A stretch of 35,675 nt of DNA, taken from a virus (lineage: Duplodnaviria; Heunggongvirae; Uroviricota; Caudoviricetes). The notes below the pieces were generated by a model, which saw nothing but the letters and a program-made list of their open reading frames with translations, had not been told where the DNA came from and did no database searches. Position 1 is the first letter of the stretch, and each line of letters begins with the position of its first letter. The stretch lies in the IMG/VR virus record IMGVR_UViG_2563366934_000005, one strand, 5' to 3'. A program made the position numbers and the translations under genes. Shown one piece after another: positions 3,578 to 22,444 of this stretch.

Positions 3578-3591
3578 TTTTCGTCACCTCC

Positions 3592-6039
3592 TTAACCGTC
3601 ATGCATCATGCTGGCACGGGCGCGCGCACGTTTATCCCGCTCGTATTTTTCGAGCGCATCCTGTAACTGGCGGTCAAGCTGTGTTCCCGGCGCAGAACCA
3701 CCCGTCAGGTTAATGTGATATTCGTTTTTACTCTGGTCTACATAAGAGCGGCCAGCCGGTGCCGTAACCGGCTGATAAGCCTGATAGCCTGCATAAGAGC
3801 TGGTCGCCGGAATATAACCAACGCTGCCATACGTGGCGGCTTGAGTTCTGGCGGCGGTCTGGTCAAGTGTGTCTGACTCTTTGTTGATAACACCGAGTTT
3901 TTCCAGTACCCAGTCAATACCGCTGCGCAGTTTGTTGAACGCATTAAGCGGCAGCATCAGCGCGTCAGCCAGTGCCTGCCCGAACATGACGCCCGTGTCA
4001 CGGCAACGGTTCAGGGTGTCCTGGGTGGCTTTAACCGGGGCAATCAGGTTTTTAAACCACTGCCACGCGGCCTGTAACTTTTCGCCCAGCCAGTCAAACA
4101 CCGGTTTCAGTGGCGTGAACAGCTCCCCCACCGGCGCAAATGCCGCTTTCAGCCCTTCAACCACACCGCCAAAGAATGCGCTGACAGGCTCCCAGTATTT
4201 ACGGATAAGTAACGCTCCGGCGACAATGGCGGCCACCACGGCCACTACCGGCCAGCTAATCGCCCCGATGGCCGTCATAACGGCACTGCCAACCGTCGTG
4301 AAAATTGCCCCCATTGCGCCTGCTGCAGCAATGATGGCATTGATGCCGGTGATAACCGGCCAGGCTACGAGGCCAATGGCACCGATGACACCAGTCAGCG
4401 CCAGTGCACCACCGACAATGATGCCGATGGTTGACGCCAGTGATTTGTTTTTCTGGATCCAGCCGTCGAGTTTTAACACATACTTTGTGGCCGTCTGCGT
4501 GAGATTACGCAGTGCGCCTTCCTGCTGGTCAAACAGGTCAGTCCCCACCGCCTCATAAGCGGACTGAAACTCCTTAAAGTCACCTCCGAGGTTGTCCTGC
4601 ATGATTTTAACCAGCTCTTCCGTTTTATCGTCCGAGGCTTTCAGCATGGCGGTCAGCTTATCCAGTTTTCCGCTTGCTGCCGCTGCCAGTAAAACGTTCG
4701 CTGATTTCAGGGCTTCCTCACCAAAAATGGTTTTAAGGTATTCCCCCTTCTGAGACGTTCCCAGCTTGTTTTTATCAAAGCTGGCCTGAATCTCTTTCAG
4801 AATGGTAAACAACGGACGCATATTTCCCTTTTTGTCCGAGGTTTTAACGCCAAGCTCTTTGAGTGCTTCCCATGCTTTCCCTGTCGGAGCCTGTAATCGG
4901 GTGACAACGGCACTGCTACCCGTACCCGCCATTGACCCCCTGATGTTATTGTCATGCAGCACACCTGTCATGGCTGCTGCCTGCTCAAGACTTACACCTG
5001 CCGTCTTCGCAACTGGGCCGAGGTAAGTCAGTGCATCACTGAGTCCCTGAAAATCAGCCGCCGACTTATTCATCGTTGCCGACAACACATCACCCACATG
5101 GCTGACATCATCATTTGACAGTTGAAAAGATGCTTTAGTCCCCAGCAACAGTTGCGCGTTTTCTTCCATCGACCGCTGATTCGCCAGTGCCATATTCAGC
5201 GTGACCGGCGTTGCCGCCTGAATAGCCGCAGCATCTCCACCCGCTTTCGCAATGATAATCTGCGCACCGGCTGCATCATCCGCCGAGGCGGCGGTGTTGT
5301 CGCCGAGCTGGCGCGCCTGCTTGCGTAGTGCGGTCATTTCGGCGGAGTCTTTTGCCACTCCGAGCACGGCCTGCAATTCTGAGTTTTTCTGCGCAAACTC
5401 ATAACCGGGCATCAGCAGCTTAACTCCGGCCATCGTTCCCGCCGCCGCAATCCCCACACCGGCAGCGCCCACTGAGGCCATATTTCCGGCCAGTTCCTTT
5501 CCGGCCTGATAACGCTGTTTTACTGCGTTAAGTTTTGCCTGTTGCGCACTGACACGCGCCAGCGCGTCACGCTGACGGTTAAGTTGTGCGGTGGTTTCAC
5601 TGATACGGTTTTTCAGTCCCTGCTCATCATGTGCAAGATTGCGGGTATTAATTCCCACAGCGGCCAGTTCCCGCTGCTGGCGTTTAACGGAATCCGTCAG
5701 GCGGTTATATTTCGCCTGTAAGTCCTCCGCCGCACGCTTTGCGGATTCCAGCACTTTCGCCTGAGCACGGGTCGGACGTTCGGTGTTTTTAAACTGTGTG
5801 GCAAGGGCTTCGGCTTCCTGCCGTGCCTTTTCAAGTGCATGACCAGTCACGGCAAGCTGTGCACTGGTCTTGCGGAATCCCTCAATACGGGATGCGTGAC
5901 CGTTCAGCTCGCGCAGTGATTTTTGTGTTTCCCGGATATCCCCCGACAGCGACTTACTCGCTGTACGGATGGATTTAAACGGGCGGGATGCCTGGTCAAC
6001 AGCCCTGAGCAATACCTGTAATTTTACATTGTTACTCAT
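3592..6039 (-). CDS. T: tail tape measure protein T
   Basis: 815 aa, the P2 gpT length. Coiled-coil-rich N-terminus and Gly/Ala-rich hydrophobic middle segment typical of tape measure proteins. Confidence 0.85.
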   Translation of the reverse strand: MSNNVKLQVLLRAVDQASRPFKSIRTASKSLSGDIRETQKSLRELNGHASRIEGFRKTSAQLAVTGHALEKARQEAEALATQFKNTERPTRAQAKVLESAKRAAEDLQAKYNRLTDSVKRQQRELAAVGINTRNLAHDEQGLKNRISETTAQLNRQRDALARVSAQQAKLNAVKQRYQAGKELAGNMASVGAAGVGIAAAGTMAGVKLLMPGYEFAQKNSELQAVLGVAKDSAEMTALRKQARQLGDNTAASADDAAGAQIIIAKAGGDAAAIQAATPVTLNMALANQRSMEENAQLLLGTKASFQLSNDDVSHVGDVLSATMNKSAADFQGLSDALTYLGPVAKTAGVSLEQAAAMTGVLHDNNIRGSMAGTGSSAVVTRLQAPTGKAWEALKELGVKTSDKKGNMRPLFTILKEIQASFDKNKLGTSQKGEYLKTIFGEEALKSANVLLAAAASGKLDKLTAMLKASDDKTEELVKIMQDNLGGDFKEFQSAYEAVGTDLFDQQEGALRNLTQTATKYVLKLDGWIQKNKSLASTIGIIVGGALALTGVIGAIGLVAWPVITGINAIIAAAGAMGAIFTTVGSAVMTAIGAISWPVVAVVAAIVAGALLIRKYWEPVSAFFGGVVEGLKAAFAPVGELFTPLKPVFDWLGEKLQAAWQWFKNLIAPVKATQDTLNRCRDTGVMFGQALADALMLPLNAFNKLRSGIDWVLEKLGVINKESDTLDQTAARTQAATYGSVGYIPATSSYAGYQAYQPVTAPAGRSYVDQSKNEYHINLTGGSAPGTQLDRQLQDALEKYERDKRARARASMMHDG

Positions 6040-6459
6040 TCGTGTTTCCGCTTCGCCGGAGCGCCTTTTCGCGCCATGTGATGAGTTCGGTCAGGCTCAT
6101 GGGATACAGTTCTGATGGCGGCCAGTGAAATATCACTGCCACATCCGCCATCAGGTCATCGACCGACAGATTTTTCGGAAACGTCACTGTACCGAGTTCG
6201 GCGACAAAAAACCGACCACCTTACCGGCCAGCGCCACAAGGTCAGGCAGTTCCAGTGCGGCGACTTCCTGCTCGGTCAGCATCGGTGCAGTCATGCGCGG
6301 CAGCACCTTAATCAGTGCATCGACTTCGGAGTTCGCGACCGCAGCCAGACTGACACCGCGCAGCGTCCCGGCATTGGGTTTCATCAGCGTGACCTGTTCG
6401 ATGACCTGCTCACCACGCTTGACCGGATTGTCCAGGGTAATCACATTTTCTTTGTTCAT
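6032..6459 (-). CDS. tail assembly chaperone E+E' (programmed -1 frameshift extension)
   Basis: After a -1 slip at G GTT TTT TG, the alternative frame stays open (VAELGTVTFPKNLSVDDLMADVAVIFHWPPSELYPMSLTELITWREKALRRSGNTNE) to a TAA overlapping the T start. Total is about 142 aa, as for P2 E+E'. Confidence 0.6.
6184..6459 (-). CDS. E: tail assembly chaperone E
   Basis: 91 aa, the P2 gpE length, ending ...KVVGFLSPNSVQ. A slippery TTTTTTG lies 6 codons before the stop. Confidence 0.8.
   Translation of the reverse strand: MNKENVITLDNPVKRGEQVIEQVTLMKPNAGTLRGVSLAAVANSEVDALIKVLPRMTAPMLTEQEVAALELPDLVALAGKVVGFLSPNSVQ
6205..6211 (-). other. slippery heptamer TTTTTTG for the E to E+E' frameshift
   Basis: Plus-strand CAAAAAA at about 6205-6211 is the reverse complement of TTTTTTG, in the correct frame context (G GTT TTT TG). 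Confidence 0.6.
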
Positions 6460-6515
6460 GGTTTTCTCACTTCTGAATCAGGGTTAACCGGTCAGCCTGG
6501 CTGACCGGATGAAAA

Positions 6516-7034
6516 TCACAGGCCGATATTGCGGCGGTGTTGCTCCAGCCGGTCGACGCCGTTCACCTTCTCAATCATGTTGATGGTGTCGATTTCGACC
6601 AGCTCCTTACCGTCCAACGTCAGCCGGAAATAGGTGCAGACCACGGAGATTTTCGACTCAGTGTCTTCTCCCTGTTTCCCCTCGCCGGTGTCGATTTCTT
6701 TCTGACGTCCACGCATGACCACCTCGACGGCCACCGTTTCGCCGGTATCGTCGCGCTGGTAAGAGCCAGCAAAACGAATCGGTACGGCATCCACGCCGGT
6801 TGCGGCGTAGAGCTCCCAGATAACCGAATCCGGGAAGCCCCCGAGCGACCACTCCATTGACAGCGCATCGTCATCAAGGCCGAGGTCTACCGGTGCGCTG
6901 CCGTTCATCCCCGCACCGCGATAGTTTTCGAGCTTACGGGTCAGTTTTGGCAGCGTGACGGACTTTGCAACGCCCTGATAGCTGTAGCCGTTCAGAAAGA
7001 CGTTCATTAACTTGAGTTTGCGCGGCATTGCCAT
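6516..7034 (-). CDS. FII: tail tube protein FII
   Basis: 172 aa, the P2 gpFII length, following FI. Confidence 0.85.
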   Translation of the reverse strand: MAMPRKLKLMNVFLNGYSYQGVAKSVTLPKLTRKLENYRGAGMNGSAPVDLGLDDDALSMEWSLGGFPDSVIWELYAATGVDAVPIRFAGSYQRDDTGETVAVEVVMRGRQKEIDTGEGKQGEDTESKISVVCTYFRLTLDGKELVEIDTINMIEKVNGVDRLEQHRRNIGL

Positions 7035-7046
7035 CGCTCAGGCTCC

Positions 7047-8237
7047 TTAATTGCTGTTAACCGAAGTGACCAGATTTGCCAGGTATTTATCGGTAATACG
7101 CTGGCGCAGGGTCAGGTTTTCAAGAGGAGGCACCGGTGTATAGTCGTAGTCGATATACAGTTTTCCGGCCTTGAGGGTTTCCGCATCGTTGGATTCTTCG
7201 CTGAACCAGCAGGTCGCATCCACGATATAGCCGTTTGTTTTCAGCTCACGGAATTTGGCATTGATGCCGTCAACGATGTCGCGAATCAGCGTTGCGGTGA
7301 TGGGCTTGTCCACCGCCCACATGTGCGCCTCAGCCATCGTGTCGGCCAGCACCTGCGCGGTGCGGGTGTAGTTTTCAAAGAGGAACAGCGGGTCATCAGA
7401 GCAGGTACGGTTACCCCAGAAGCGGAAACCGTCACGGCGAATCAGCGTTGTGACGCCTGACTCGTTAAGCAGGTCAGCATCGGTGCCGGACTCCTGCAAA
7501 TCCCAGAATACGGACGCGCTGATGCCGGTAACACCGTTCACCCCGACGTTGGACAGCGTTTTATGCCAGCCCTGCTCCTGGTCGATTTTAGCGCGCAGAC
7601 CCAGCGCACGGGCAGTGGCATACGCGGTGGCGGTGGTACTGGCGACCGTATCCCATGCGAGGAAATCCGGCCAGATGACCATCAGCTCACGCTGGCTGAA
7701 ATTCTGGCGGTAGGCTTTCACCTCGGAAATGGTTTTACAGCCCCATGCGCTGATATACCCGAAAGCGCGCAGCTTCTGACAGACTGATGCCAGTGCAACA
7801 GCCACCTCTTTGGTGTCCAGTCCCGGCACACCGAGAATACGCGGTTTAACGCCGGTTACCGACTCTGCCGCCAGCAGGGCTTTCAGTCCGGTGTACTGAC
7901 CATTTTCGTCGGTGGTGCCGATGATATTGGAAACGGTCTGCGCGAGTTTCGTTTCCTCGTCGTCGCCGGTGCCGTCTTCCACACGCACGACAACGGTGAC
8001 CGGTTTTGACTGGTCAGCGATGGCCTGCAACGACGCCGCCAGCGTGCCTTTTTTACCGGCCTTTGCAATTGCGCTCTGCACGTTGGTAATCAGCACCGGT
8101 TTATTGAGGGGGAAGGTTTCCGCATCCGCATCGCTGGCCGTGCAGACCATGCCGACAATGGCCGTGGATACGGTGGAAATGACGCGGGTGCCGTCGTTAA
8201 TCTCCAGCACCTGCACGCCGTGATGATAGTCACTCAT
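7047..8237 (-). CDS. FI: contractile tail sheath protein FI
   Basis: 396 aa, the P2 gpFI length. GGAG ribosome-binding site upstream of the ATG. Confidence 0.85.
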   Translation of the reverse strand: MSDYHHGVQVLEINDGTRVISTVSTAIVGMVCTASDADAETFPLNKPVLITNVQSAIAKAGKKGTLAASLQAIADQSKPVTVVVRVEDGTGDDEETKLAQTVSNIIGTTDENGQYTGLKALLAAESVTGVKPRILGVPGLDTKEVAVALASVCQKLRAFGYISAWGCKTISEVKAYRQNFSQRELMVIWPDFLAWDTVASTTATAYATARALGLRAKIDQEQGWHKTLSNVGVNGVTGISASVFWDLQESGTDADLLNESGVTTLIRRDGFRFWGNRTCSDDPLFLFENYTRTAQVLADTMAEAHMWAVDKPITATLIRDIVDGINAKFRELKTNGYIVDATCWFSEESNDAETLKAGKLYIDYDYTPVPPLENLTLRQRITDKYLANLVTSVNSN

Positions 8238-8330
8238 CCGTTTAACTCCGTGGTTAATGGGTGCAACTATTTTCTGTTGTGCAGAGCATGAGACGCTATA
8301 TGACCTGGCTGGTCAGTGGATGAAACAACA
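8238..8330 (-). promoter_or_regulatory. candidate late promoter region for the FI-FII-E-T-U-D operon
   Basis: About 90 bp between the upstream terminator hairpin and the FI start, where P2 places its Ogr-dependent late promoter. I could not identify a convincing TGT-N12-ACA element by eye. Confidence 0.3.
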
Positions 8331-8340
8331 GATAAAGAAA

Positions 8341-8361
8341 AGGCGGGCAATTCGCCCGCCT
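8341..8361 (-). terminator. intrinsic terminator closing the Z/fun cargo transcript
   Basis: GC-rich hairpin AGGCGGGC-AATTC-GCCCGCCT followed on the minus strand by TTTCTTTATCTGTTGTTT. Confidence 0.45.
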
Positions 8362-8600
8362 GTCCTGATTTGTACTCACTCATTTTCCGACTGACAATTT
8401 ACATAGCCCAAACGCTATCAATTCTGACAGTCTGCTTTGAGCGAGGAGCAGACCTTCACGCTTTTCGCTGTTGAGTGACATGAATTATTAAAGAGCATTA
8501 TAAAACTTCACTTTTTCTAATTTCAATGCTTTATTAAAGTCAGCGACATTCAGGCTTATCAATTCAATATTAATATACCATCAGCATTATATAAGAGGTA

Positions 8601-9605
8601 TTATGCTAACCATTTTGGATGCTCTTTATAAACATTATTAAACCACTCGGTCATTTCAGGTGAGTTCGTATCCTTTATCCAAGTTAACTCAAAGTCATCT
8701 CCCATAGATGCAAATATTGATTTCAATTGAGTTATGATTAAACCATAGTAAAATCCAAAAGTTTTTTCTTCATCCTCATTGACTAATGATTCAATATGAC
8801 AACTGAGAATAAATCGAACTCGTGCCGCCGTTGAGGGATGTGTCGATTGAAAATGTTCATGGGGTGATAAGCCATCAGAAAGTTTGAAGTAGCACAGTAT
8901 TAATAGCAATGAAAATGCAATTCCGCCTTCCTTGCTGCTATAAAAATCAAGCAAGTTATTAAGATAAGATACCTTCTGATCAAATGCAGACTGTACATGT
9001 TTTTTTACAATATTAAGAGCAAAACCATCTGCAACTAATTCTCTTGCGTGGCTTGATATTAGTTCTGCGCTATTGATTTTTTTATGTCCTAAAACATCAT
9101 CAAAGATAGTGTCAATAGATTGCTTTTTTGCTCGGTCGCCATGTTTATTAATGAAATGGCCTACTTCGTGACTAACTATAAACAGCATTAGACAATCAAG
9201 AATAAACATAAATAAGTGTGATTCGGACTCACTTTCCTCTCTTGTCTCATTGTTAAACCCAACAAATGGATTAGTAACGAGATGCAAGTCATAAAAGTTT
9301 AAATTAGTACTTTTCCCTGTTATCATCCCTGACCGAAAAATCAAGTCAGATAACTTACATAGTCTATCAAATGTACCATAAGACATAAATATTAATTTTT
9401 CATCATAAATAATGCCGCATTGAAAATGTGAGTTGGTTGTAATGCAAAAATCCAGATCTAATTTTCGAACAGAGTCCATGTATTTACTAAAAAACGGCAG
9501 TACGAGACCATTATCTCTATCATTTATAAAATCATAGATAAGCCCCAATTGATTCTTTGAAAGAATTTCATTGATTTCATTAAGTTTTATTTCAAATCTA
9601 TCCAT
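8601..9605 (-). CDS. cargo protein with ImmA/IrrE-like (M78-type) HExxH zinc-metallopeptidase core; function unknown
   Basis: 334-aa ORF with AAGAGG ribosome-binding site 8 nt upstream. HEVGH at residues 146-150 (nt about 9156-9170) and ELVADGFAL at 189-197, fitting the HExxH ... ExxA(N/D)xFA pattern of COG2856 peptidases. Very AT-rich relative to the phage backbone. Confidence 0.55.
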   Translation of the reverse strand: MDRFEIKLNEINEILSKNQLGLIYDFINDRDNGLVLPFFSKYMDSVRKLDLDFCITTNSHFQCGIIYDEKLIFMSYGTFDRLCKLSDLIFRSGMITGKSTNLNFYDLHLVTNPFVGFNNETREESESESHLFMFILDCLMLFIVSHEVGHFINKHGDRAKKQSIDTIFDDVLGHKKINSAELISSHARELVADGFALNIVKKHVQSAFDQKVSYLNNLLDFYSSKEGGIAFSLLLILCYFKLSDGLSPHEHFQSTHPSTAARVRFILSCHIESLVNEDEEKTFGFYYGLIITQLKSIFASMGDDFELTWIKDTNSPEMTEWFNNVYKEHPKWLA

Positions 9606-9921
9606 AATTAGAACCTCTTAATTAAAATTTTAAATAATCCGCTTAAGTAGCTATGGAGATGTAATTCTAATACTCAATCCACTCATTCAATGGAAAGATT
9701 AGCATTACTTTAACCGCACTTTTGGACTTGACTTACTTCCCTTAAAGCTTCTGGGCACTATGTTAGTAATGTCCGCTCTTCGCACGCAGCGGACATTGCT
9801 AATAGCGGTCTATGTGAAACACGGGGAGTAGGTTAGTTTTAGCGTTAAACACAATAAGAGCACGATGAAGTATCAAAAAGGAAGCATTGCATAGATAATT
9901 TAGGCAAAAACAGAGCTTAAA

Positions 9922-10773
9922 TTACATATCATTCGCTATCAATTCGGTTGAGAGAACCCTTGGAATCAAGCTACTTTTTGAACCATACTTTATATACAGA
10001 AAGTCCATCATCTTTTCAACATCACTTTCATGCTCTACAATGACATATTTAATATCCTTATGTGAAAAGGGTAACCTGTCATCATCATAATATTCGTTAT
10101 ATTTTCTCTTGCCATCTTGAGTTGATATATTTTTCGAAGCAGCGATCACTGGTTTTCCAATTGATTTTTCTATATCTGGAACAAATCGCCACTCCCTCTC
10201 ATCTGCAAAAATATAGTTAGGTTTCTCCTGACCATTGCGTCGTTTCAAAGTTGCCTGGTAATTTTTCATATATCGCAAAGGATCTACAATTTTCTTGTAA
10301 CTAAGAATCGCCGAGTCATATTTCCGCTTTGCATTAGTTAATTGAGATGTTGTTCCTGAAGATTTTATTTCGTCCAAATGCTTTAATAACTTATTAACTT
10401 CTGCTTTTAAACGCCTAATCTCTAGATTATAATTATCAAAAACAGAAGAGTGCTTGGACATGTAAATTACTGGATTAAGTCCATTTTCGTTTGCCCAATC
10501 TTTTGATAATCCTATGCCATAATGGCCATAACTTTCAGTATGCTGGGTAAGCTGTGTTAGCCTGATATCACAAAATGAAACCATCGGTATACCGAAATTT
10601 CTATTCGTGCTCTGGCCTTGTATAAACTCTCTAGCGAAAGAAATTCGAAAATAACTTGAGTCAAGTATCTCAAATAAGGTATCTAACTTTTCAGTAAAAT
10701 GAAACAAGGTCGTTGGGTATAAGCTACGCGACATAATGATCATCCATAATATGATGTATAAACTAAGTATCAT
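9922..10773 (-). CDS. hypothetical cargo protein (283-aa ORF; start may be an internal Met)
   Basis: Long AT-rich ORF at the Z/fun position. Conspicuous LFHFT...L..IL N-terminal motif and a basic coiled-coil-like middle. No clear ribosome-binding site at the first ATG; alternative starts at Met11 and Met14. Confidence 0.5.
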   Translation of the reverse strand: MILSLYIILWMIIMSRSLYPTTLFHFTEKLDTLFEILDSSYFRISFAREFIQGQSTNRNFGIPMVSFCDIRLTQLTQHTESYGHYGIGLSKDWANENGLNPVIYMSKHSSVFDNYNLEIRRLKAEVNKLLKHLDEIKSSGTTSQLTNAKRKYDSAILSYKKIVDPLRYMKNYQATLKRRNGQEKPNYIFADEREWRFVPDIEKSIGKPVIAASKNISTQDGKRKYNEYYDDDRLPFSHKDIKYVIVEHESDVEKMMDFLYIKYGSKSSLIPRVLSTELIANDM

Positions 10774-10952
10774 AAATCAAGGTTATCAGTACTTACCATA
10801 CATCAGCAAGCGGAATTAGCGATAGCGGCCTGCTCCTCATTAATCAACACTAAGAGCTGTTAGCTACTTCCGCTCCTGGCACAGAGCGGACTGTCAGATT
10901 AGGCTTTACTCTGTGCCATAGATATGTAAGCTCACACCAGAGTTCATATAAC

Positions 10953-11480
10953 TTATTGCGGCATTTCCGGCCATTCAGGATTTGCAGGATCCACACGGCT
11001 GACCAGAACACTGTAGCGTTCCCATGCTTCCAGTCGGCTACGCTCCTCATCTGTTGCCATGTTCAGCCTGACAGCGCGCTCCAGTGGCAAAATCACGGAT
11101 TCAGCATCTGCAAGAAGTCTGGCTTTCCGGTTTTCTGCCTGCTGCTGCAATTCCTCTGCCGTATAAATGCGTTTAATCACTGTACCGTCCTTAAACATCC
11201 AGTTCCCTGAAATGTCCGCCCGTCGGTTAGCAGTAATATCCGCCACTTCAACAACACTTAATCCATCCGGTCTGATAGCTGTCACATCCTTTTCCACATA
11301 GCGGATGATATTATCTTTGTCGTACGCTATTTTTAGCGTGTCATCAGCAAAATACTTTTGTTCTTCGTACCAGTTCTTACCATCTTCTGAAAAAAACCAG
11401 ACAACATCAAAGTCTTTTGTCAATTGATATTGTTCAACCGTTTTTGGATTACCCGCCGTAATATTTTTTAAATGCTGCAT
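10953..11480 (-). CDS. G: tail fibre assembly protein G
   Basis: 175 aa, the P2 gpG length, immediately downstream of H. Confidence 0.8.
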
Positions 11481-11483
11481 AAA

Positions 11484-13732
11484 TTATACCTGCGCCACGT
11501 TATACCATGTCCCGTTAATGTATTTCTGAACCGGTCTGTAATATACACCACCAATGTTATCGGCAGAGTTTGAGCCGGTATCCTGAACAATAATGCCGGA
11601 ATATACACACCCGGACGGTGCCTGATGTGTCCATGTCATGCCATTGTTCGCAGGTTTGTATGTGGCAGCACCACCAAGCCGGATATCCCGGACATAGCGG
11701 GAATCAAAGTTACCGTAATCCGAGGGATTAACACGCCCCGTAATATTTATGGTTTTATTACTTTGAATGCTACCGGAGACAAAGCGCATAACATGGACGT
11801 TATTAGCATAAACATCCAGATTACCGTCGCCATTTTGTTTAAAGCCCGTGTCATTATCACCCAAAACAATCGAGTTACCGCCAAGAGCACTGGATGTACC
11901 GATGCCCAGTGCACCATTCAATTGACCTCCAGATAATGATAACGCCCCAACATCAGCAGCAGTCGGTTTAATGTGCGAACTGTAAATTACATATACAGTT
12001 CCATCTGTCAGGCCTGTTGGTTTATTCGCTGTATAAGTTGGTGATGTATGAATCGTTACGCTGGCGTTACTGGTATAATCCCACTGAATATTAACACCTG
12101 TGGCGTAATTACCTATTTCAACATAAACATCATAGGTATCACCGGATGTATTCACCCATGCAAAATTAGTAAATCCAACCGAGGTCCGTCGCCATAACGC
12201 ACCAGTAAGACCTTTTGGATTTCCATTTCCCGCACGAAGAACAAGTTCAGATATACCAGCCTGCATAGGGGAGTTAACATTATATCCGGCACCACCAATC
12301 AGACTTATGTAAACCACGGAACTGGCCTGTGACATGGTTACAGTTGCCAGCCTGAACCATCCTGTACCACCACTAAAAGACATGGTTGTTGAATTTGTTG
12401 CTCCAATATTGCGCAGGAATAATCTTTTATCAGGAATATCCGCGCCATTTTGATCTTTCTGAAGACGTTTTTCAGCATTGTCATAGGCAGACTTCACCGC
12501 TTTTGGTGTTGCGGCCAGCGTTTCCGAATCACTGTTGGTGGCGCTACTGAGCTGGACAAGACCTTTTCGCGCTGTGGTGGCGTCCTGTGCGGTATATTTC
12601 CCGTTAGCAAGGTCATACGCTGTCTTAACCGCCTTTGGCGTTGCAGCCAGCGTTTCAGAATCGCTGTTTGTGGCGCTACTGAGCTGGACAAGACCTTTTC
12701 GCGCTGTGGTGGCGTCCTGTGCGGTATATTTCCCGTTAGCAAGGTCATACGCTGTCTTAACCGCCTTTGGCGTTGCAGCCAGCGTTTCAGAATCGCTGTT
12801 TGTGGCGCTACTGAGCTGGACAAGACCTTTTCGCGCTGTGGTGGCATCCTGTGCGGTATATTTCCCGTTAGCGAGGTCATATGCTGCCTTTACCGCCTTT
12901 GGCGTTGCCGCAAGCGTTTCAGAATCACTGTTGGTGGCGCTACTGAGCTGGACAAGACCTTTTCGCGCTGTGGTGGCATCCTGTGCAGTGTATTTCCCGT
13001 TAGCAAGGTCATATGCTGCTTTTACCGCTTTTGGTGTTGCGGCGAGCGTTTCAGACGTGCTGTTGGTGGCACTACTGAGCTGGACAAGACCTTTTCGCGC
13101 TGTGGTAGCGTCCTGTGCGGTATATTTCCCGTTAGCCAGGTCATATCTTTCGGCGTTGCAGCCAGTGTTTCAGACGTGCTGTTGGTCGCACTGCTTAACT
13201 GAGTAAAACCTTTTGCGGTCAGCGAGGCGTCCGGGTGACGTCGTGACTGTTCATGTTCTGCAATTTTGTCATCAACGTAATCCTGCGTCGCCATCACCGT
13301 TGTGGTGTCAATGGTCAGCTCCACTGAGGTCACACTGCTGACGATGATGACCATACGGCAGGTCTGCGAACGCCCTGAGCCTTCGGCAAGAGCTGGCTTA
13401 TAACTTTCGGCCATGTTCGCCACGGCAATTAACGTTCCAGCATCATCGTACAGGCCAAGCTCACGCATCCAGAAACCGCCCACCTCCGGCGGAATAACCA
13501 GCTCTGCGATAATATAATTACTGTTTCGTTTGTCCTGGCTGATTTTGTTCAGCGCATGTCGCCAGACTTCGTGGATAAGCCCGGTCTGTCCGGCATCCGG
13601 GACAGGCAATTTACCACCGCCATCCCCGACGGCCATCGTGGTAATGTTGACCTTCCGCCCTCCCGGCGCGGTTGCCGCTGCCAGCTTTGCTGCACCGGCA
13701 GTGGTGATAACGGTTCTGAATTTTGTGCTCAT
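11484..13732 (-). pseudogene. H: tail fibre protein H, disrupted by a frameshift within its internal repeats
   Basis: The conserved H N-terminus (ORF 13022-13732) runs through the first repeat in frame (..SSATNSTSETLAATPK), then continues out of frame. The in-frame repeats and receptor-binding C-terminus (ORF 11484-12497, open upstream to about 13145) are in another frame. About 13 nt encoding AVKxA is missing at about 13146-13147 relative to the other repeat units. Confidence 0.6.
12497..13215 (-). repeat. tandem 132-bp coding repeats (about 5 units of a 44-aa tail-fibre motif)
   Basis: Near-identical units every 132 bp, starting at about 12541, 12673, 12805, 12937 and 13069. Each encodes AVKAAYDLANGKYTAQDATTARKGLVQLSSATNSDSETLAATPK. 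Confidence 0.85.
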
Positions 13733-13742
13733 TATTCCTCAC

Positions 13743-14273
13743 TTATCCGGGGTAAACCGTAATTACATCGCCGTCGTAAGCCACACAACCGGCGAACAGG
13801 TAGCCGGGAATGTCCCGGGTAATGTTCAGGCCAATAAGGTGGCGGCTTGCAGGTTTGGCATCGGCAATCAGCCGTTCCATTTCCTGATACATTGCCTCCG
13901 TGATGCCGCTTTCCAGTACACCAATATCAAGCCGGAAGGTGCCTGGCGGGTCACTGTTTTCCCACCACTCCGTCACGTTGATGAGATAGCCGAGCGGCTC
14001 CACCACACGCCGGATTGCGCCGATAGTGCCTTTATGACAGTGGATGAAATAGGCATCGCGAATAACGGCGCGTTTGGTCGCTTCCGGCCACTTTTCATCC
14101 CACCTGTCGACCGAAAACGCCCACGCCAGCCACGGCAGCAGATTTCCCGGGCAGGTGTCCGGGTTCCACAGTTCACGAATACTGACCGGCGTTTTTTCAA
14201 TTTCCGCACAGGCTTTTGCGGCAGCAATTTCAAGCGGTGATGAGCCGGTCGGCAGCAGGCGCGAATCACTCAT
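13743..14273 (-). CDS. I: baseplate assembly protein I
   Basis: 176 aa, the P2 gpI length; overlaps the J stop. Confidence 0.8.
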   Translation of the reverse strand: MSDSRLLPTGSSPLEIAAAKACAEIEKTPVSIRELWNPDTCPGNLLPWLAWAFSVDRWDEKWPEATKRAVIRDAYFIHCHKGTIGAIRRVVEPLGYLINVTEWWENSDPPGTFRLDIGVLESGITEAMYQEMERLIADAKPASRHLIGLNITRDIPGYLFAGCVAYDGDVITVYPG

Positions 14274-15174
14274 CCGAGCCTCCGGTCACGACGCGGTATT
14301 CGGTACAGAAAGACGCCTGCGTACTGTTGAGCACAATGTCGGCCAGTGGTGCGGCCAGCTCGACACGCTGCACGCCTTCCACATGCAAAGCGGCATAAAT
14401 GGCAGACAGACGGATGTCGCGCCCCAGCCGGTGCTGCGCCGTGATGTACGCTTCCAGTTTTTTCACGGCAGCAGCGCGGATGGGTTCGCTTTCGGGACCA
14501 GGGTAAAGGTAAAGCGTGGCGTTTATCTGGTATTCAACAATGGCGGCAGACTGCACGGTCACGCGGTCGGCCACCGGCCTGACGTCCTCGCCATTAAGGG
14601 CGTTACGCACCACGGCCAGCAGGTCTTCGGATGCCACACCGTTATTTTCACGTGACAGCACAGAGATGGTGACGCAGGCCGGAGACGGACTGGTGACAGA
14701 AATATCCGCGACACGCCCGTCGGCACTGCGACCATGATACTGATAGGCCCCCACCGACCCGGCGACGCTTAAACCTTCAAACGCCTGCTGAATACGCAGA
14801 CGATAATCAGTATCAGATTCCATCACTGCCGGTGTCGGCGGGATGGTCGAATCGTCTGCCGGGGTGATAATCAGGCGTGTGGTGTTGTAATTGGCACCAA
14901 TCACATCAAGGTCATTACCGGCGGCACAGGCCAGCATTACCGCCCGTGCTGCCTCATTCACACGCTGACGCCAGATAAGCTCACGATAAGCATTTTCCTC
15001 CAGCAGTTTGACGAGAGGCTCGGATTCCAGCGTCAGGGTACGGGCGACCGCCTCCTGCTGGTCTTCCGGGTAAAGGGAAATCAGTGTCGCCTTGCGTTCG
15101 GCAAGAATGGTTTCAAAGTCCAGCTCCTCGACCACATCCGGTGCAGGTAGCTGGTTCAGGTCGATAATCGGCAT
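14266..15174 (-). CDS. J: baseplate assembly protein J
   Basis: 302 aa, the P2 gpJ length. Confidence 0.8.
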   Translation of the reverse strand: MPIIDLNQLPAPDVVEELDFETILAERKATLISLYPEDQQEAVARTLTLESEPLVKLLEENAYRELIWRQRVNEAARAVMLACAAGNDLDVIGANYNTTRLIITPADDSTIPPTPAVMESDTDYRLRIQQAFEGLSVAGSVGAYQYHGRSADGRVADISVTSPSPACVTISVLSRENNGVASEDLLAVVRNALNGEDVRPVADRVTVQSAAIVEYQINATLYLYPGPESEPIRAAAVKKLEAYITAQHRLGRDIRLSAIYAALHVEGVQRVELAAPLADIVLNSTQASFCTEYRVVTGGSDE

Positions 15175-15178
15175 GGTT

Positions 15179-15526
15179 TCAACTCACAGGGATGGTTAAC
15201 GAAAGTGGCTGGCCGGTGTCGTTGTGCTGGCCGGTTAACGTGACCGTCATTCGCCCGTCAAAACTGCGCTCAGTGGTGACGGATGACAGGGTGACGCGGG
15301 GTTCCCATTTCAGCACCGCCATGTAACAGGCGACCTTAATCTGCAACTCAAGCGCCGGGGTCTGCGGCTGGTCAATCATTGATGCCAGCAACGAGCCGTA
15401 ATCACGACGCATCACCCGTGAGCCGACCGGTGTGCGCAGGATATCGCCGATACTCTGGCTGATATGCTCAAGGTCAGTGACAGTCAGGCCATCACTGCGA
15501 TTCATTCCGAGATAACGCGCTGTCAT
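15179..15526 (-). CDS. W: baseplate protein W
   Basis: 115 aa, the P2 gpW length; start overlaps the V stop. Confidence 0.8.
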   Translation of the reverse strand: MTARYLGMNRSDGLTVTDLEHISQSIGDILRTPVGSRVMRRDYGSLLASMIDQPQTPALELQIKVACYMAVLKWEPRVTLSSVTTERSFDGRMTVTLTGQHNDTGQPLSLTIPVS

Positions 15527-16158
15527 AAAGGACTCCCGGTTGTGCCGCCGCTGTCGCCGGGGTGTTTATGGGTATGCAGTACCTTACCGTTTGATGAGAG
15601 TTCACCGCCGGTGTGTTCAATGTTGCCGCGCATCGTCCCGCCCTTCTGCACTTCCAGCGTGCCGGTAATCAGCCTGTTGGTGCAGACCACCTCCGGGGTG
15701 TCCAGGGTGACGCGCGTTGATGCTTTCACCATGACCACCGGCACCGTGGCAGTAACAGAATCAGAAGCCGTCACGCTGGCCGTTTTAATTCCGCTTACCG
15801 TGAGTGCACTGGTTTCGGGTTCATATTCAATCACCGCCCCGTCAGGGAAACGGATATGCAGGGCATCCGCCGACACAGACGGCGAGGGGTTATCGCCGGA
15901 ATAAATCCCCGGCAGAACGAACGCCGTGTCGAGTTCACCGCCCACGGCCAGAATCAGCACCTGTTCTCCCACGGAAGGTGCCCACCATGTGCGCGAACGT
16001 CCTGCGCGATGGGTCAGCCACTGAAGCCAGTCGGTGCACATGCCGCCGGTCTGCACGCGGCAGCGACCGGCGTTAAGGTCGGTTTCGACGATAATGCCGG
16101 TGCGAATCATGTTGCGCAGTGCGCGCGCGAGTTCCTGAATATTTGCGAGAGTGTTCAT
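15523..16158 (-). CDS. V: baseplate spike protein V
   Basis: 211 aa from the ATG at 16158 (MNTLANIQELARALRNM...), the P2 gpV length. The track ORF starts 6 codons upstream at a TTG. Confidence 0.8.
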   Translation of the reverse strand: MNTLANIQELARALRNMIRTGIIVETDLNAGRCRVQTGGMCTDWLQWLTHRAGRSRTWWAPSVGEQVLILAVGGELDTAFVLPGIYSGDNPSPSVSADALHIRFPDGAVIEYEPETSALTVSGIKTASVTASDSVTATVPVVMVKASTRVTLDTPEVVCTNRLITGTLEVQKGGTMRGNIEHTGGELSSNGKVLHTHKHPGDSGGTTGSPL

Positions 16159-16241
16159 GCATGTGAGATTGCACAATATATAAAAGTTATGCTATCTGGA
16201 TTCATTTGTAGAACTACCAGACAACATTCAAGGAGAGCGTA

Positions 16242-17027
16242 ATGGTCAGCTATAATGTGACTAATGTGTGGGGGCTAATCGTTTTTTTCCTTTGTAGCTT
16301 TGCAGTATTAGCATTTTTTAGCTTTGGTAAAAGTAACCTTATGAGGCTTATTGCACATTATTTCAATTTTGGATATTCAGACAAAAAATTAAAAAGACTT
16401 GACCGCGAGTGGCGCGACATTCAACTATTTAAAATAATTAACGGAATCAATGTATCAGGCATTGAAAATGTGAGAATGATACAGCAGGGACTGATTGATG
16501 GAAAACTAAAAACATCGTATTTTTTCCTTACTCGCATCTGGGGTGACATAACAAAACCACCACACATAATTAAAACAATAATTGTAATTCTGGCCAGTAT
16601 TTTTTACATTCTCCTCGCATGTTACATACACAACGAACAATCCGTTATAGTAAGGGATGCCATAGGCATACCATATAAAAACATGATGTACTATGTTTAT
16701 AGTGACAAAGTTCTTTTATCCTTCAAAAATAAAGCAGTTGAATTTAATAAAACTTATAGCCTTGCCGATTGCAAGAGACTGCAAAACGTATTTATAAAAG
16801 ACACACTTCCTGAGATCGCCTGCAATAAGCTCTTACAGCTAAACGAGGAGGACTCCGAATGGTTAAGCCAGGAGATTAAAGATAATAACAGTCACAAAAA
16901 AGCATTATTAATACTATCCCTCGTCTATTTCACTTCAGGTCTGGTTATATTCCTGTCATATACAAAATTCTTTTACGCCAATAAGAAGGTTTTAGAATAC
17001 AAAGCATCAAATAAAAATCACTCATAA
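16242..17027 (+). CDS. AT-rich membrane protein at the P2 orf30 position (3 predicted transmembrane segments), function unknown
   Basis: 261-aa ORF with AGGAG ribosome-binding site. Encoded opposite to the flanking V and S late genes. Hydrophobic segments at about residues 10-28, 112-131 and 222-241. Confidence 0.6.
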   Translation: MVSYNVTNVWGLIVFFLCSFAVLAFFSFGKSNLMRLIAHYFNFGYSDKKLKRLDREWRDIQLFKIINGINVSGIENVRMIQQGLIDGKLKTSYFFLTRIWGDITKPPHIIKTIIVILASIFYILLACYIHNEQSVIVRDAIGIPYKNMMYYVYSDKVLLSFKNKAVEFNKTYSLADCKRLQNVFIKDTLPEIACNKLLQLNEEDSEWLSQEIKDNNSHKKALLILSLVYFTSGLVIFLSYTKFFYANKKVLEYKASNKNHS

Positions 17028-17033
17028 ACCTCT

Positions 17034-17068
17034 AAACATTGAGCGACCAGCATGGCCGCTCAATGTTT
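17034..17068. terminator. bidirectional hairpin between the orf30-position gene and S
   Basis: 12-bp perfect stem AAACATTGAGCG / CGCTCAATGTTT with an 11-nt loop, sitting between convergent stop codons (17027 and 17099). Confidence 0.5.
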
Positions 17069-17098
17069 AATTGCGCATCAGCCTCTGCCTGGATAAAA

Positions 17099-17551
17099 CT
17101 AACGCTCAAGGTGAGCCAGGATAATCTCTTCAATCATCTGCACATCCTCACCGGTAAAGCCGAGCAGAGGACGCGCCGGATAATCAATTTTCTTACCGTC
17201 TTTCCGGGTTTCTTCCGACAGACCGAACTGATGCACACTGGCGATTTTCGGCGACTTCCCGCCGTAAAATTCCATTGATGCCTGTTCCGGGCTGGCGCGG
17301 ATATGCAAAAAACGACTGGTGATAAGTTTCGCAAACATTTTTCGCTTAACACGACCGGTCTTTTTTCTGGCGCTCTGCTGCTGGCGTGGCGCGTAGGGTG
17401 TGCCGTCCGGGGCTTTCTGTGCCATCACCCGACGCTGCTGACTCTGCCGCAGACGCTTCGCCAGCTCTGCACTCAGCCGCCGACGCCCTGACGGTGACAG
17501 CGACTCAATAAGTCCGGTCAGCCGGTCTTCAAAACGCTTAAACTCATTCAT
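17099..17551 (-). CDS. S: tail completion protein S
   Basis: 150 aa, the P2 gpS length. Confidence 0.8.
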   Translation of the reverse strand: MNEFKRFEDRLTGLIESLSPSGRRRLSAELAKRLRQSQQRRVMAQKAPDGTPYAPRQQQSARKKTGRVKRKMFAKLITSRFLHIRASPEQASMEFYGGKSPKIASVHQFGLSEETRKDGKKIDYPARPLLGFTGEDVQMIEEIILAHLER

Positions 17552-18011
17552 CCCACTTACTCACCAGTTCGCCATTGATATAAAGCTCCATCGGGCGGGT
17601 GACCGGCTCCGGCGGCGGGGGTTCCGGGATATTCTTCACATGCAGTGCGCCGTCGACCTCACTGACCAGCGTGCGCTCGGTCAGCATCAGGCTGATGCTG
17701 ACATCAAAGCTGCTGTCATTGTTGATGTCTGCATAAAACGTGAAGCCCTTTTTCTGGCCTTCGTCGGTGGTCATGATGTCGGGCTGATTTTCCCGCAGCC
17801 ACGCCAGTACCGGCACGATGAGCAGGTCAAAATCACCGGTAAAGTCGGTCACAATGACATTGAGCGTGTAACGCTTTTCGAATGACAACGACGCCGCCAG
17901 CGTGGAGGCAATACTCCCGTTATCCACGAATATCCGCAGCATATCGGGGTTAGTTTTCAGCACCGTGACGGCATCAGTCAGCGCCCTGCGCAGGCTGTCG
18001 GGTTTGAGCAT
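17544..18011 (-). CDS. R: tail completion protein R
   Basis: 155 aa, the P2 gpR length. Confidence 0.8.
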   Translation of the reverse strand: MLKPDSLRRALTDAVTVLKTNPDMLRIFVDNGSIASTLAASLSFEKRYTLNVIVTDFTGDFDLLIVPVLAWLRENQPDIMTTDEGQKKGFTFYADINNDSSFDVSISLMLTERTLVSEVDGALHVKNIPEPPPPEPVTRPMELYINGELVSKWDE

Positions 18012-18264
18012 CGTTTTCGTCCTGACAGTGTTTAATCATTTTTACCTGGCTGGCACAGCGTGCCAGCGCGTTCTCAAGCTGCCGGATATCAGCACTTAAA
18101 TCGCCGTTCGTCTGCGGGTCACTGCCCGGCATCGGGCAAAGGCTCACTTTCGGGCAGGCGTTGGCGACAATCACTGGCGTCGGTGCAGGCCGGGCGCTGG
18201 TGCAAGCGGCGCACAGCATCAGGCAGGTCAGCACCGTACCAGCGGCGAAAATCTTCGTTTTCAT
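17974..18264 (-). CDS. lysC: LysC, Rz1-like outer-membrane spanin lipoprotein (embedded out of frame in lysB)
   Basis: 96 aa from the ATG at 18264 (MKTKIFAAGTVLTCLMLCAAC...). Signal peptide with a lipobox Cys and a Pro-rich body. Nested in the +1 frame of lysB and overlapping the R start, as in P2. Confidence 0.65.
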   Translation of the reverse strand: MKTKIFAAGTVLTCLMLCAACTSARPAPTPVIVANACPKVSLCPMPGSDPQTNGDLSADIRQLENALARCASQVKMIKHCQDENDAQTRQPAQGAD

Positions 18265-18544
18265 TGAGTAATCTCGTGATGGTTTTCTCGCGCTGTGCTT
18301 CACGCTTCGCGGCGTTCTCCAGTTCCTGACGCAGAGCCACCTGCGCCAGCTCGTTTTTGTCTGCTCTGGTGAGGGCAACATGAAGCTGATTTTTCAGCAT
18401 GGTGATGGTCACCTGCTGTTCACTGGCGACGTTGTTCACCCTGTCCAGCGAGGCGCGCAGGCTGGCGTTTTCATGCTTCGCCAGAAACAGCCCCGCCACC
18501 GCCAGTGATAACAACACAACCAGCACAATCATCAGTTTTGACAT
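18119..18544 (-). CDS. lysB: LysB, Rz-like inner-membrane spanin
   Basis: 141 aa, the P2 LysB length. N-terminal transmembrane segment followed by a coiled coil. Confidence 0.75.
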   Translation of the reverse strand: MSKLMIVLVVLLSLAVAGLFLAKHENASLRASLDRVNNVASEQQVTITMLKNQLHVALTRADKNELAQVALRQELENAAKREAQREKTITRLLNENEDFRRWYGADLPDAVRRLHQRPACTDASDCRQRLPESEPLPDAGQ

Positions 18545-18957
18545 GGTTCCCGCCCCTCAAAACGCTGACGGCAGGCCGTACGTATCAGCCGGAAAAACAG
18601 TGACGCCACGAGATAAATCAGCGCGGTAAAAATCCATCCGGCGGCGACCAGCGAGATAAATGTCGCCACCATCACTACCAGAGCCACTGACCGCCTGCGC
18701 CACGGCACCGGCTGCAAAAACAGCGCCGTGACAATCTTCACGGCCAGCGATTCCGGCGGCAGCTCCCGCCCGTAGCGTTCCAGTACATACTCAGTGGCAT
18801 ACACGCCGATACCACCGGCAACCACACAGATAACCGTCGCCAGAATCGCCCAGGTGGCGACAAAACTGACGGCCACGCTCTGCGGGTAAATCAGGGACAG
18901 TGCCAGCATCAGCGCCAGCGACACATTCAGCATCAGTGAAAGGGATAATTTCTTCAT
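18532..18957 (-). CDS. lysA: LysA lysis-timing membrane protein
   Basis: 141 aa, the P2 LysA length; multi-pass hydrophobic protein. Confidence 0.7.
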   Translation of the reverse strand: MKKLSLSLMLNVSLALMLALSLIYPQSVAVSFVATWAILATVICVVAGGIGVYATEYVLERYGRELPPESLAVKIVTALFLQPVPWRRRSVALVVMVATFISLVAAGWIFTALIYLVASLFFRLIRTACRQRFEGREPCQN

Positions 18958-18971
18958 GGTGTTTACTCCGT

Positions 18972-19469
18972 TTAAGCCGGTACGCCGCCGGCGGTACGCC
19001 AGACGGTGACCAGTTTTTCCAGTGAATGCTCACGCTGACCGTAACCGGCTCCCGGCAGGGACGCCCAGATATTGCGACAGCGTGAAATGGCGCGCTCAAT
19101 ACGTCCCGCCAGGATGTCATCCAGCGCACCGCGTTCGCGGATCAACTGAATGGCGAGTCTGTCCTGTGACAACGGACTGAAATCCGGCAGGGCAAGCTGT
19201 TTGCGGTAGTGCGGCCAGAACAGGTAAAGCTGCTGATAGCGACCGGAGGCCGTGGACTTTTCACCGCGACGGTTAAACACCTTCGCCGGTCGGCCATGCG
19301 CGAACGGGTGGTCACTGTAGTCGGTGAAGATTTCCGGCTTTCCGTCCAGTCCGGTGACTATCACGTCATAGCCCCGGTTTTTCGTCAGCGGATGATTCGC
19401 CGTCCCTTCGGACACGGCCAGCATGTCGAGAAAGGCGGCGATATTCTGATGCGTGTTAATTACCGGCAT
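18972..19469 (-). CDS. K: endolysin K
   Basis: 165 aa, the P2 gpK length, downstream of the holin. Confidence 0.8.
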   Translation of the reverse strand: MPVINTHQNIAAFLDMLAVSEGTANHPLTKNRGYDVIVTGLDGKPEIFTDYSDHPFAHGRPAKVFNRRGEKSTASGRYQQLYLFWPHYRKQLALPDFSPLSQDRLAIQLIRERGALDDILAGRIERAISRCRNIWASLPGAGYGQREHSLEKLVTVWRTAGGVPA

Positions 19470-19750
19470 TACGGTTTCCCCCTGCCCTTAAAGCGGCGCT
19501 GAATGGCAATCTCAATCACCTGATAACCGGCGATACCCAGCATGGAGCCGATGCCGCACACCGCAGGCAGTGACAGGTCAGGAAACTGCACCAGAACAAC
19601 ACCGGCAACCATCGAGACAAAACCACCGAGCAACATGCGCCCGATAAACAGACGCGGGGTGATGGGTTCACCACCGGCAAGCACCTTGCCGACAACAATC
19701 AGCACCCCAATCATGAAAAGCGACAGGACGCTTTTTTCTTCTGCTGTCAT
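19469..19750 (-). CDS. Y: holin Y
   Basis: 93 aa, the P2 gpY length; hydrophobic transmembrane segments. Confidence 0.8.
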   Translation of the reverse strand: MTAEEKSVLSLFMIGVLIVVGKVLAGGEPITPRLFIGRMLLGGFVSMVAGVVLVQFPDLSLPAVCGIGSMLGIAGYQVIEIAIQRRFKGRGKP

Positions 19751-19753
19751 GCG

Positions 19754-19957
19754 TTACTCCCAAAGATTGACAGTTTCAGCCACGGGCGCGGTCTGAACGT
19801 CGGGCAGTTCGACGGCGGTGCCGTGTGGCAGCACCGCACCCAGTTCAGCCAGTCCCGGATTTGCGGCGAGCACGGTCTCAACCACGCCCTCAGTGCGCCC
19901 GTAATACCGGACACAAATGGCGTCGAGCGTGTCGCCCTGTAGCGCAAAGGTCTTCAT
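19754..19957 (-). CDS. X: tail protein X
   Basis: 67 aa from the ATG at 19957 (MKTFALQGDTLDAICVRYYG...), the P2 gpX length. ATGA start/stop overlap with L. Confidence 0.7.
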   Translation of the reverse strand: MKTFALQGDTLDAICVRYYGRTEGVVETVLAANPGLAELGAVLPHGTAVELPDVQTAPVAETVNLWE

Positions 19958-20466
19958 CAGATTTGACTCACGATGCAGCGCGGCTTGTCCTGGATACGCG
20001 CCACCGCCCAGCGCATATCCCGCCACAGTTCATCAATGGTGCTGTCAATGCTGTCAGCCTTCTTGTCGCCTTTCGCACTGGCATCCACACCGCGATAACG
20101 CTCATAAAGCGACGCGGTCGCCATCGCACACACGGCGCGCTCGTAGTAAAAAACTTTGATACTTTCACCGTCGATGTCGTCCGCCGGAACGTCCGCCAGA
20201 CGCGTAAAACCGGCGGCAATTTTCTGTTCGCGGTACTCGTACAGCTCCGCATTTGTTTCCGCCATGCCTGACTTGATGGCCTCACGCAGACGGGCGGGGG
20301 CGACGGTCTGCTCAAGGCGCATACGTTCCCGGACGCGCTTCGGGTCGATATCGGGAAAAAAGAACGTGTTTTTAATCACCGGCTCGTCGCCTGCCGGTTG
20401 CGGGATGACCACCGTACCCTCACCGGACACGGGAGCCTCCTTTCGCGGAATAATCAGCGTCATCAT
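19957..20466 (-). CDS. L: head completion protein L
   Basis: 169 aa from the ATG at 20466 with a GAGG ribosome-binding site, the P2 gpL length. Confidence 0.75.
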   Translation of the reverse strand: MMTLIIPRKEAPVSGEGTVVIPQPAGDEPVIKNTFFFPDIDPKRVRERMRLEQTVAPARLREAIKSGMAETNAELYEYREQKIAAGFTRLADVPADDIDGESIKVFYYERAVCAMATASLYERYRGVDASAKGDKKADSIDSTIDELWRDMRWAVARIQDKPRCIVSQI

Positions 20467-20565
20467 GACTACCTCTGAAAAGTCGGGCGGTGGACGCCAG
20501 TACAGTGTCAGGTGATTCACCCTCACTGACCGGCGTGCCGCCCTGGCGCGGGGCGCATTCGGTTG

Positions 20566-21309
20566 TTAACTGGCTTTCTTTTTCGGGCGTCCACGTTTTG
20601 CCGGTGTCACGCTCCGGATCTTACGCGGGGCGCGGGTGGCCGCTTTTGGCTGCGGCTCCGGCTTCGGTTTCAGTTCCCGCTCCAGTCGTTCAATCTCTTT
20701 TTTGACGCCTGCCTGACAGTCGAGCTGTGTCGCACGTTGCAGGTGCGCCAGCGCACCGGCGGCATCACCACCGTCACGCAGAAACAGACCGGTGATTTTG
20801 TGCAGCTTTGCGCGCACTTCATCAGGCATGTCAGCCGTGGCGGTCAGTTCAAGGGTCTCCGTCAGCAGGCGGATATCCACAGATTCACCGGCAGCGTGAG
20901 CGCGCATGGCCGCGAGTGCGACCTCCTCGGTGAACATGTACGGCGGGGTGCGGCGGTGTTTACCCGGCATGGTCAGACCGTACTTCAGGGCATAACGGGC
21001 AATCTCCAGCGCACCGGCAATATCGCCGGTATCCAGACGCCACAGCATGACCGTCATCAGAATGTCATCCTGTGCACCTTTGCCCTGCTCCAGCACGCCG
21101 TTCACCCACGGCAACCAGAACGGCAGCAGTTCGCGTTTTTTCGCGGCCTTCAGCTCTTTTGAATAAATCGCTTTCAGTGTGCGCTGGTCTGCGGCGAGCT
21201 TAACCAGCATCTGCTCATAGACAGTTGCATGTCGCAGCGGGGCGGCTTCCCGCTGCGCGGTCATCGCTGCCGAGACCCGCATCATGTGGCGCTGTGCGGG
21301 ACTCGTCAT
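20566..21309 (-). CDS. M: terminase small (endonuclease) subunit M
   Basis: 247 aa, the P2 gpM length. Confidence 0.8.
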   Translation of the reverse strand: MTSPAQRHMMRVSAAMTAQREAAPLRHATVYEQMLVKLAADQRTLKAIYSKELKAAKKRELLPFWLPWVNGVLEQGKGAQDDILMTVMLWRLDTGDIAGALEIARYALKYGLTMPGKHRRTPPYMFTEEVALAAMRAHAAGESVDIRLLTETLELTATADMPDEVRAKLHKITGLFLRDGGDAAGALAHLQRATQLDCQAGVKKEIERLERELKPKPEPQPKAATRAPRKIRSVTPAKRGRPKKKAS

Positions 21310-21312
21310 CGG

Positions 21313-22386: not shown

Positions 22387-22444
22387 AGTTTTTCCTGAAA
22401 TTAAGGGTTAATCGTGAAGGTTTTCCCGGACTGACTGACGCCGG

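Follow-up and report, generated by a model that had tools for sequence, protein, structure and literature searches.

The tail fibre gene H of a P2-like prophage of Escherichia coli, carried on the 35,675-nt stretch of viral DNA analysed here (hereafter the window), was found to be split into two reading frames by the absence of 13 nt within its repeat array. It is highly probable that this is a real 13-bp deletion of recent origin that has been inherited vertically in one clonal lineage, and that the element is a defective prophage at an early stage.

Genomic context of the prophage

The window was identified as an E. coli P2-like (Peduovirus) prophage, with a chromosomal site that adjoins yegQ/trhP. 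A 28-nt direct repeat found at both of its ends matches the P2 attP core exactly, both att cores thus being present (Table 1). The P2 proteome from the annotation of AF063097.1 was used as a tblastn query against the window, and 39 P2 core genes other than H were recovered as single HSPs that spanned the P2 protein with 65–100% identity (Q, P, O, N, M, L, X, Y, K, lysA/B/C, R, S, orf30; V, W, J, I, G, FI, FII, E, T, U, D, ogr; int, C, cox, orf78, B, orf80-83 and A). The C-terminal shortfall relative to the P2 protein was one residue for Q, one for Y and seven for A. The sole fragmented gene in this comparison was H, situated between the ORFs of the baseplate protein (gene I) and the tail fibre assembly chaperone (gene G) in the V-W-J-I-H-G order of P2. 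An earlier reading of the sequence, the first-pass annotation, had described the prophage as otherwise intact in appearance, which agrees with the 39 genes matched and with the presence of both att sites.

Two accessory genes were identified between G and FI, a region corresponding to the Z/fun hotspot of P2. The first belongs to the AbiGi family (Pfam E = 7e-31; PADLOC AbiGi E = 2e-41), and an AbiGii partner for it was not found. The second encodes a protein of 334 aa with an HEVGH zinc-protease motif, which is described by its precomputed annotation as Peptidase_U49 (Lit-like) and which gave only a weak M48 match in the Pfam scan and zero PADLOC matches. At the tin/old hotspot, located between Q and A, an ORF for an AAA_13 ATPase of 738 aa was found, with a PADLOC match to the candidate system PDC-S06 (E = 1e-254) and a weaker PrrC-like match at its C-terminus. 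The prophage still has three accessory defence-type genes in two classic P2 hotspots, and such hotspots have been described as defence reservoirs (PMC9122126).

Table 1. Features of the prophage and of its gene H (positions are those of the window).
Feature	Position	Strand	Basis or remark
P2-like prophage	1507..35200		28-nt direct repeat at both ends and P2 homology
28-nt direct repeat (att cores)	1507-1534 and 35173-35200		Exact match to P2 attP core
Accessory region, Z/fun hotspot	8601-10773	-	Two genes, between G and FI
Gene for 334-aa HEVGH protein	8601-9605	-	Second Z/fun gene
AbiGi-family gene	9922-10773	-	Pfam and PADLOC
Gene G, tail fibre assembly chaperone (PF02413), intact	10953..11480	-	Pfam; tblastn 11480-10956
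Orphaned H 3' part	11484..13169	-	-1 frame relative to start codon; five repeats and receptor-binding C-terminal domain
Lineage-private substitution, Pro to Ser in TVTM[P/S]QASS	12332	-	C to T; untranslated part of H
Six 132-nt/44-aa tail fibre repeats (PF03406)	about 12444-13222	-	Diverged first unit included
G_GGA_AAT heptamer	13130-13124	-	Shifted frame, correct phase, 16 nt downstream of junction
Deletion junction	13146..13147	-	Alignment with intact alleles
H 5' fragment, 236 codons	13022..13732	-	Native residues 1-195 (13732-13148), out-of-frame residues 196-236
Gene I, baseplate protein, intact	13743..14273	-	Directly upstream of H; tblastn 14273-13746
Tin/old hotspot, 738-aa AAA_13 ATPase	26783-28999	+	Between Q and A; PADLOC

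Anatomy of the lesion in gene H

Six-frame translation gave an H ORF on the minus strand that starts at 13732, with GAGG upstream of its start codon, and runs for 236 codons to a TAA stop (13024-13022), bearing out the frameshift within the repeat array that the first-pass annotation had proposed. In-register comparison with the intact relatives L001 (VG35A2) and L002 (GDAR2-2) showed that exactly 13 nt, CGGTTAAGGCCGC, are absent between G13147 and A13146, where a loss of about 13 nt encoding AVKxA had been suspected; the missing bases form part of the codons for Ala-Val-Lys-Ala-Ala (AVKAA). Placement of the deletion is unambiguous and its flanks show no microhomology, the bases across the junction in the deletion allele being GCCGAAAG followed directly by ATATGACC. 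Microhomology-mediated deletion was rejected, as the 13 nt can be placed in only one way and flanking direct repeats are absent. The deleted segment and the preceding G together make a 4-bp quasi-palindrome (GCGG...CCGC), too weak a feature to support a mechanism.

The 236-aa product ends with ...LSSATNSTSETLAATPK up to the shift, and after ...LAATPK it reads DMTWLTGNIPHR...QHQKR before its stop, this being the repeat translated out of frame. The position and size of the shift had been given correctly by the earlier reading, with the native residues before it numbering 195 and not 196. These residues share 97% identity with P2 gpH. The 5' fragment contains the complete tail-collar/baseplate-attachment domain PF12571 (residues 1-151, E = 2.8e-59), as well as 26 residues of the first PF03406 repeat. 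The frame of the 3' part encodes YDLANGKYTAQD..., followed by five more PF03406 repeats (E = 4.6e-100) and the receptor-binding domain. It had previously been described as lacking a start codon throughout, down to 11484. It is indeed open from 13169 with no ATG, GTG or TTG before 12497, and at that position a GTG is found. No Shine-Dalgarno-like sequence was found before any of the in-frame starts of the 3' part, unlike the true H start.

PF12571, PF03406 and the synteny of a P2-type H were all identified, and the single ORF of such a gene was not. As judged from its reading frames, H of the window is a pseudogene of the P2-type tail fibre gene family, and its two fragments, both of which have been deposited as hypothetical proteins, should be annotated as one pseudogene.

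The repeat array

Tandem repeats were identified with TRF at 12480-13146, with a period of 132 nt, 5.1 copies and 93% matches. Unit 1 (13222-13104) is 119 nt in length through the deletion, with units 2-6 occupying 13103-12444. Units 4 (12839-12708) and 5 (12707-12576) are 100% identical, and the left half of unit 1 is diverged, agreeing with the other units at only 51-56 of 76 nt. Upstream of the lesion, units 1 and 2 share an exact match of 20 nt. The array was found to comprise six units in KTE29 and five in the other carriers of the deletion, the copy number in carriers being uncertain because short-read assemblers collapse identical 132-nt tandem units.

Otherwise near-identical intact H alleles were observed to possess 4, 5 or 6 repeats, giving proteins of 665, 709 or 753 aa (L001, L002, P0022). 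Units have been perfectly copied in independent events, with AVKTA found twice in the window and AVKVA three times in WP_134741835.1. As the number of repeats varies and different units have been duplicated or triplicated, the length of the fibre shaft changes by unequal recombination.

Distribution of the deletion allele

An exact-sequence look-up identified the 236-aa frameshift product in KTE29 (ELF86234.1) and GCA_005388985.1 (GDB21386.1), and also in three ENA metagenome assemblies (ERZ27238495, ERZ27237960 and ERZ28586108). The junction was additionally found in GCA_034419955.1 (L012). In total, the deletion allele was present in six assembly records of different projects, these being three E. 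coli isolates and three metagenome assemblies, the latter of which may go back to a single subject or study. Across 19,605 nt the window and scaffold KB733014.1 of KTE29 (GCA_000352245.1) showed 100% identity, which makes KTE29 or a strain identical to it the source of the window. The carriers were compared to the window over as much as 19.7 kb, with the array left out and the yegQ chromosomal flank included, and showed no SNPs for L003-L006 and a single SNP (at 6027) for L012. This near identity, extending into the chromosomal flank, fits clonal descent and not horizontal spread. The junction was not found in one piece in any of 5,426 complete E. coli genomes, nor was it found in IMG/VR, JGI metagenomes or GTDB species representatives; the intact junction was present on 11 IMG/VR contigs.

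Intact relatives and ancestry

The H of relatives was found to be a single ORF of 665-753 aa. The H-region query was covered to 80% or more in 59 complete E. coli genomes, and among the best 40 of these the H region was 2282 or 2150 nt in length, a difference of 132 nt that leaves the two forms in frame with each other. When H of the window is repaired, one duplicated unit is removed and the Pro to Ser change is reverted, the resulting protein is exactly WP_032308195.1 (VG35A2), an intact H of 709 aa with five units, which was itself identified on 206 contigs, so that this prophage with an intact H is common. An intact 709-aa H was also found in eight of the ten listed places that share the same moron protein (24 contigs read). 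The nearest intact place (L017) differs from the window by one SNP and the 13 nt in the part upstream of the junction. Relatives with an intact H (L008-L017) occupy the same site and possess the same accessory genes, with some of their backgrounds diverged or their tail genes mosaic.

The serine at 12332 was seen only alongside the deletion and is present in the carriers, with none of the 163 complete genomes having a matching receptor-binding domain showing the Pro to Ser change. Exact look-up returned neither an intact H with this serine nor an intact six-unit version of the allele, only the five-unit form with proline being found. Among carriers, the extra, perfectly duplicated repeat unit was present in KTE29 only. 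These observations hint that the substitution and the extra unit may have arisen after the inactivation of H, each as a single event.

A ParE/ParD pair was observed just outside yegQ (~19700-20300 per locus, beyond position 1 of the window) in most of the strains with this prophage (L008-L017). It is missing in L010 and L015, and the chromosomal background of the prophage is therefore not always the same. The relatives whose H is intact were also seen to be near-identical to the window in the head/baseplate half, with dense blocks of SNPs in gene T (~3685-5250) and in the sheath/tube region (6100-8300), which points to mosaic recombination between P2-like prophages.

Possible restoration of the fibre

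Translation of some functional fibre despite the deletion is unlikely, whether through -1 slippage or through rare unequal recombination or slippage of unit 1 against unit 2, a 119-nt contraction that would remove the lesion and bring back the frame; the lesion would then be leaky or reversible. A -1 shift anywhere in 13169-13021 (148 nt) regains the native frame with no stop between, and this segment contains, besides two A_AAG tetramers, one phased heptamer of the X_XXY_YYZ type, G_GGA_AAT. The heptamer is correctly phased within a stop-free stretch, which would favour slippage; it is present in every repeat because each repeat encodes NGKY. The 20-nt stretch that unit 1 shares exactly with unit 2 ahead of the lesion could likewise serve a contraction, and since intact fibres of four, five and six units exist, a contracted fibre would probably work. 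Against slippage, the 90 nt downstream of the heptamer folded no better than shuffled sequences (z = -0.02), giving no indication of a stimulatory RNA structure, and no Shine-Dalgarno-like stimulator was seen just upstream of it on reading the sequence. Shifty heptamers of E. coli without stimulators have been reported to shift at 2-10 times a background of ~0.055% (Sharma et al. 2014, PMC4066793), so that slippage in H would be expected to stay under about 0.5%. Conservation of the two-frame layout is also lacking, relatives having one ORF, and the proteins expected of revertants (709 or 665 aa, carrying Ser or Pro) were absent from a collection of ~15 billion proteins on exact look-up.

Programmed -1 frameshifting was rejected for H. 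A slippery heptamer was identified, and as both a stimulator and conservation are missing, H cannot be placed in this class. Slightly less probable again than a leaky lesion is that the deletion constitutes a recoverable 'off' state, the array still containing the deleted segment intact in its five other units. If this were true, a 119-nt contraction or, more weakly, slippage would regenerate a working fibre, and the lineage would keep a prophage bearing defence genes locked in place with reversion possible at low frequency.

Very improbable is a fibre that functions in two pieces, or an H supplied by a co-resident P2-like prophage, with the element still spreading horizontally. Sequences similar to P2 H occur at a median of two places per E. 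coli genome having any, and an intact G chaperone has been retained, both of which would allow for such an arrangement. Internal restart of the 3' part was rejected on account of the missing Shine-Dalgarno-like sequence before its in-frame ATG or GTG codons, which also counts against a split fibre. The restriction of the allele to one clone, its absence from viral contig collections and the near identity of the carriers along with their chromosomal flank argue against continued horizontal spread. In addition, the docking-domain stub could compete with a fibre supplied in trans.

Finally, it is extremely unlikely that the gap reflects mis-assembled, near-identical 132-nt repeats, with the real gene being a continuous ORF of ~753 aa, as the first-pass annotation had offered as its alternative. 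The lesion does lie inside a repeat array of the kind poorly resolved by short reads, several carrier contigs (L005, L006) end within the array, and the number of units is not constant between carriers (six versus five). However, collapse of an array loses whole 132-nt periods, of which the observed 13 nt is not a multiple, the junction lies in unit 1 with its diverged left half, and the identical junction was recovered in six assembly records of different projects, the contig names of which (k111_*, *-scaffold_*, NCBI WGS) point to more than one assembly pipeline. The assembly of the intact allele on 206 contigs further argues against a sequence-specific artefact. Assembly collapse was accordingly rejected, the artefact reading being largely refuted, and the 13-bp deletion is taken from these sequence comparisons to be genuine. 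Since collapse is rejected, the other alternative of the earlier reading is favoured, namely that a full-length fibre is probably not made by the prophage.

Comparison to known systems

H of the window resembles P2 gpH (AF063097.1) and WP_032308195.1 in its position in the operon, its PF12571 domain, its PF03406 repeats and the G chaperone gene next to it. It differs from both in being split by the 13-nt deletion, with no single ORF. Compared to WP_032308195.1 it has one extra repeat unit, and compared to P2 gpH its receptor-binding C-terminus is only 37% identical. Nothing directly relevant to P2 gpH genetics or to frameshifted fibres of P2-like phages was found in the open-access literature.

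The closest analogue is the stf gene of phage lambda PaPa, which Hendrix and Duda are said to have found in 1992 to be frameshifted by a small deletion, giving two ORFs that were propagated in the lineage. In both cases a small deletion splits a tail fibre gene and the allele is inherited in a lineage; the side fibres of lambda are, however, accessory, with infection occurring via gpJ, whereas a P2-type H is the sole fibre. Similarity is also found with the tail chaperone genes E/E+E' of P2 (AF063097.1), in which two frames of a tail gene overlap with a programmed -1 shift, H likewise having an X_XXY_YYZ heptamer. That arrangement is conserved and functional, whereas the layout of H is derived from a deletion, limited to one clone and without a stimulator. 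With point-inactivated cryptic prophages the window shares a single lesion in an essential structural gene, an otherwise complete prophage and vertical inheritance. No substantive difference from these was identified, the window standing very near the outset of such decay, its H having one lesion and one private SNP.

Predicted effect on the phage

The preferred reading remains a real deletion inherited within one clone. A 13-bp deletion would have arisen in the first 44-aa repeat of H in a P2-like prophage at the yegQ site, and would then have been passed on vertically within one E. coli clone that includes KTE29, two further isolates and the sources of three metagenome assemblies, from gut or elsewhere. 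Ribosomes that begin at the H start codon would produce a 236-aa stub in which the baseplate-docking domain is kept and the other repeats and the receptor-binding domain are lost, the distal part of H lying in the other frame with no usable start. The prophage should still be able to excise, replicate, package its DNA and lyse the cell, yet would be expected to release fibre-less, non-infectious particles.

In P2-type phages, H is the only tail fibre and is essential for adsorption, with H mutants giving non-infectious particles; P2-type prophages are classically not inducible by the SOS response or mitomycin. The GenBank record AF063097.1 names H a probable tail fibre. As H is the sole and essential fibre, a prophage with a split H is predicted to be non-infectious, and the reading frames of the window suggest that infectivity has probably been lost. 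It may be speculated that the stub could occupy the fibre sites of the baseplate and compete with a fibre supplied in trans.

Prophages are well known to decay through small indels in their structural genes, and the lesion in H is ordinary prophage decay, leaving current understanding unchanged. A defective prophage is one in which an essential virion function has been lost with other modules retained, and the window corresponds to this, with H split and 39 other P2 genes and both att sites intact. The P2-like prophage of KTE29 seems complete to prophage finders yet is predicted to be non-infectious, and should be scored as defective. The lesion, appearing very recent and restricted to one clone, would illustrate cleanly how the domestication of a prophage begins. 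P4-type satellites produced with the help of a fibre-less P2 would be expected to be non-infectious as well.

Two further observations were made on fibre sequences. A different truncated H of 229 aa (EMV21962.1; P0002, E. coli BCE034_MS-14) ends in ...DATTREKALSSSVGHQQL; this looks like an independent frameshift elsewhere in the repeat, and could be an artefact of a contig end or of sequencing. The receptor-binding segment 12290-12375 of the window matches 78 E. coli plasmid places and 89 chromosomal places. It is presumably common to the fibres of P1-like phage-plasmids, which would fit an exchange of fibre modules among unrelated phages.
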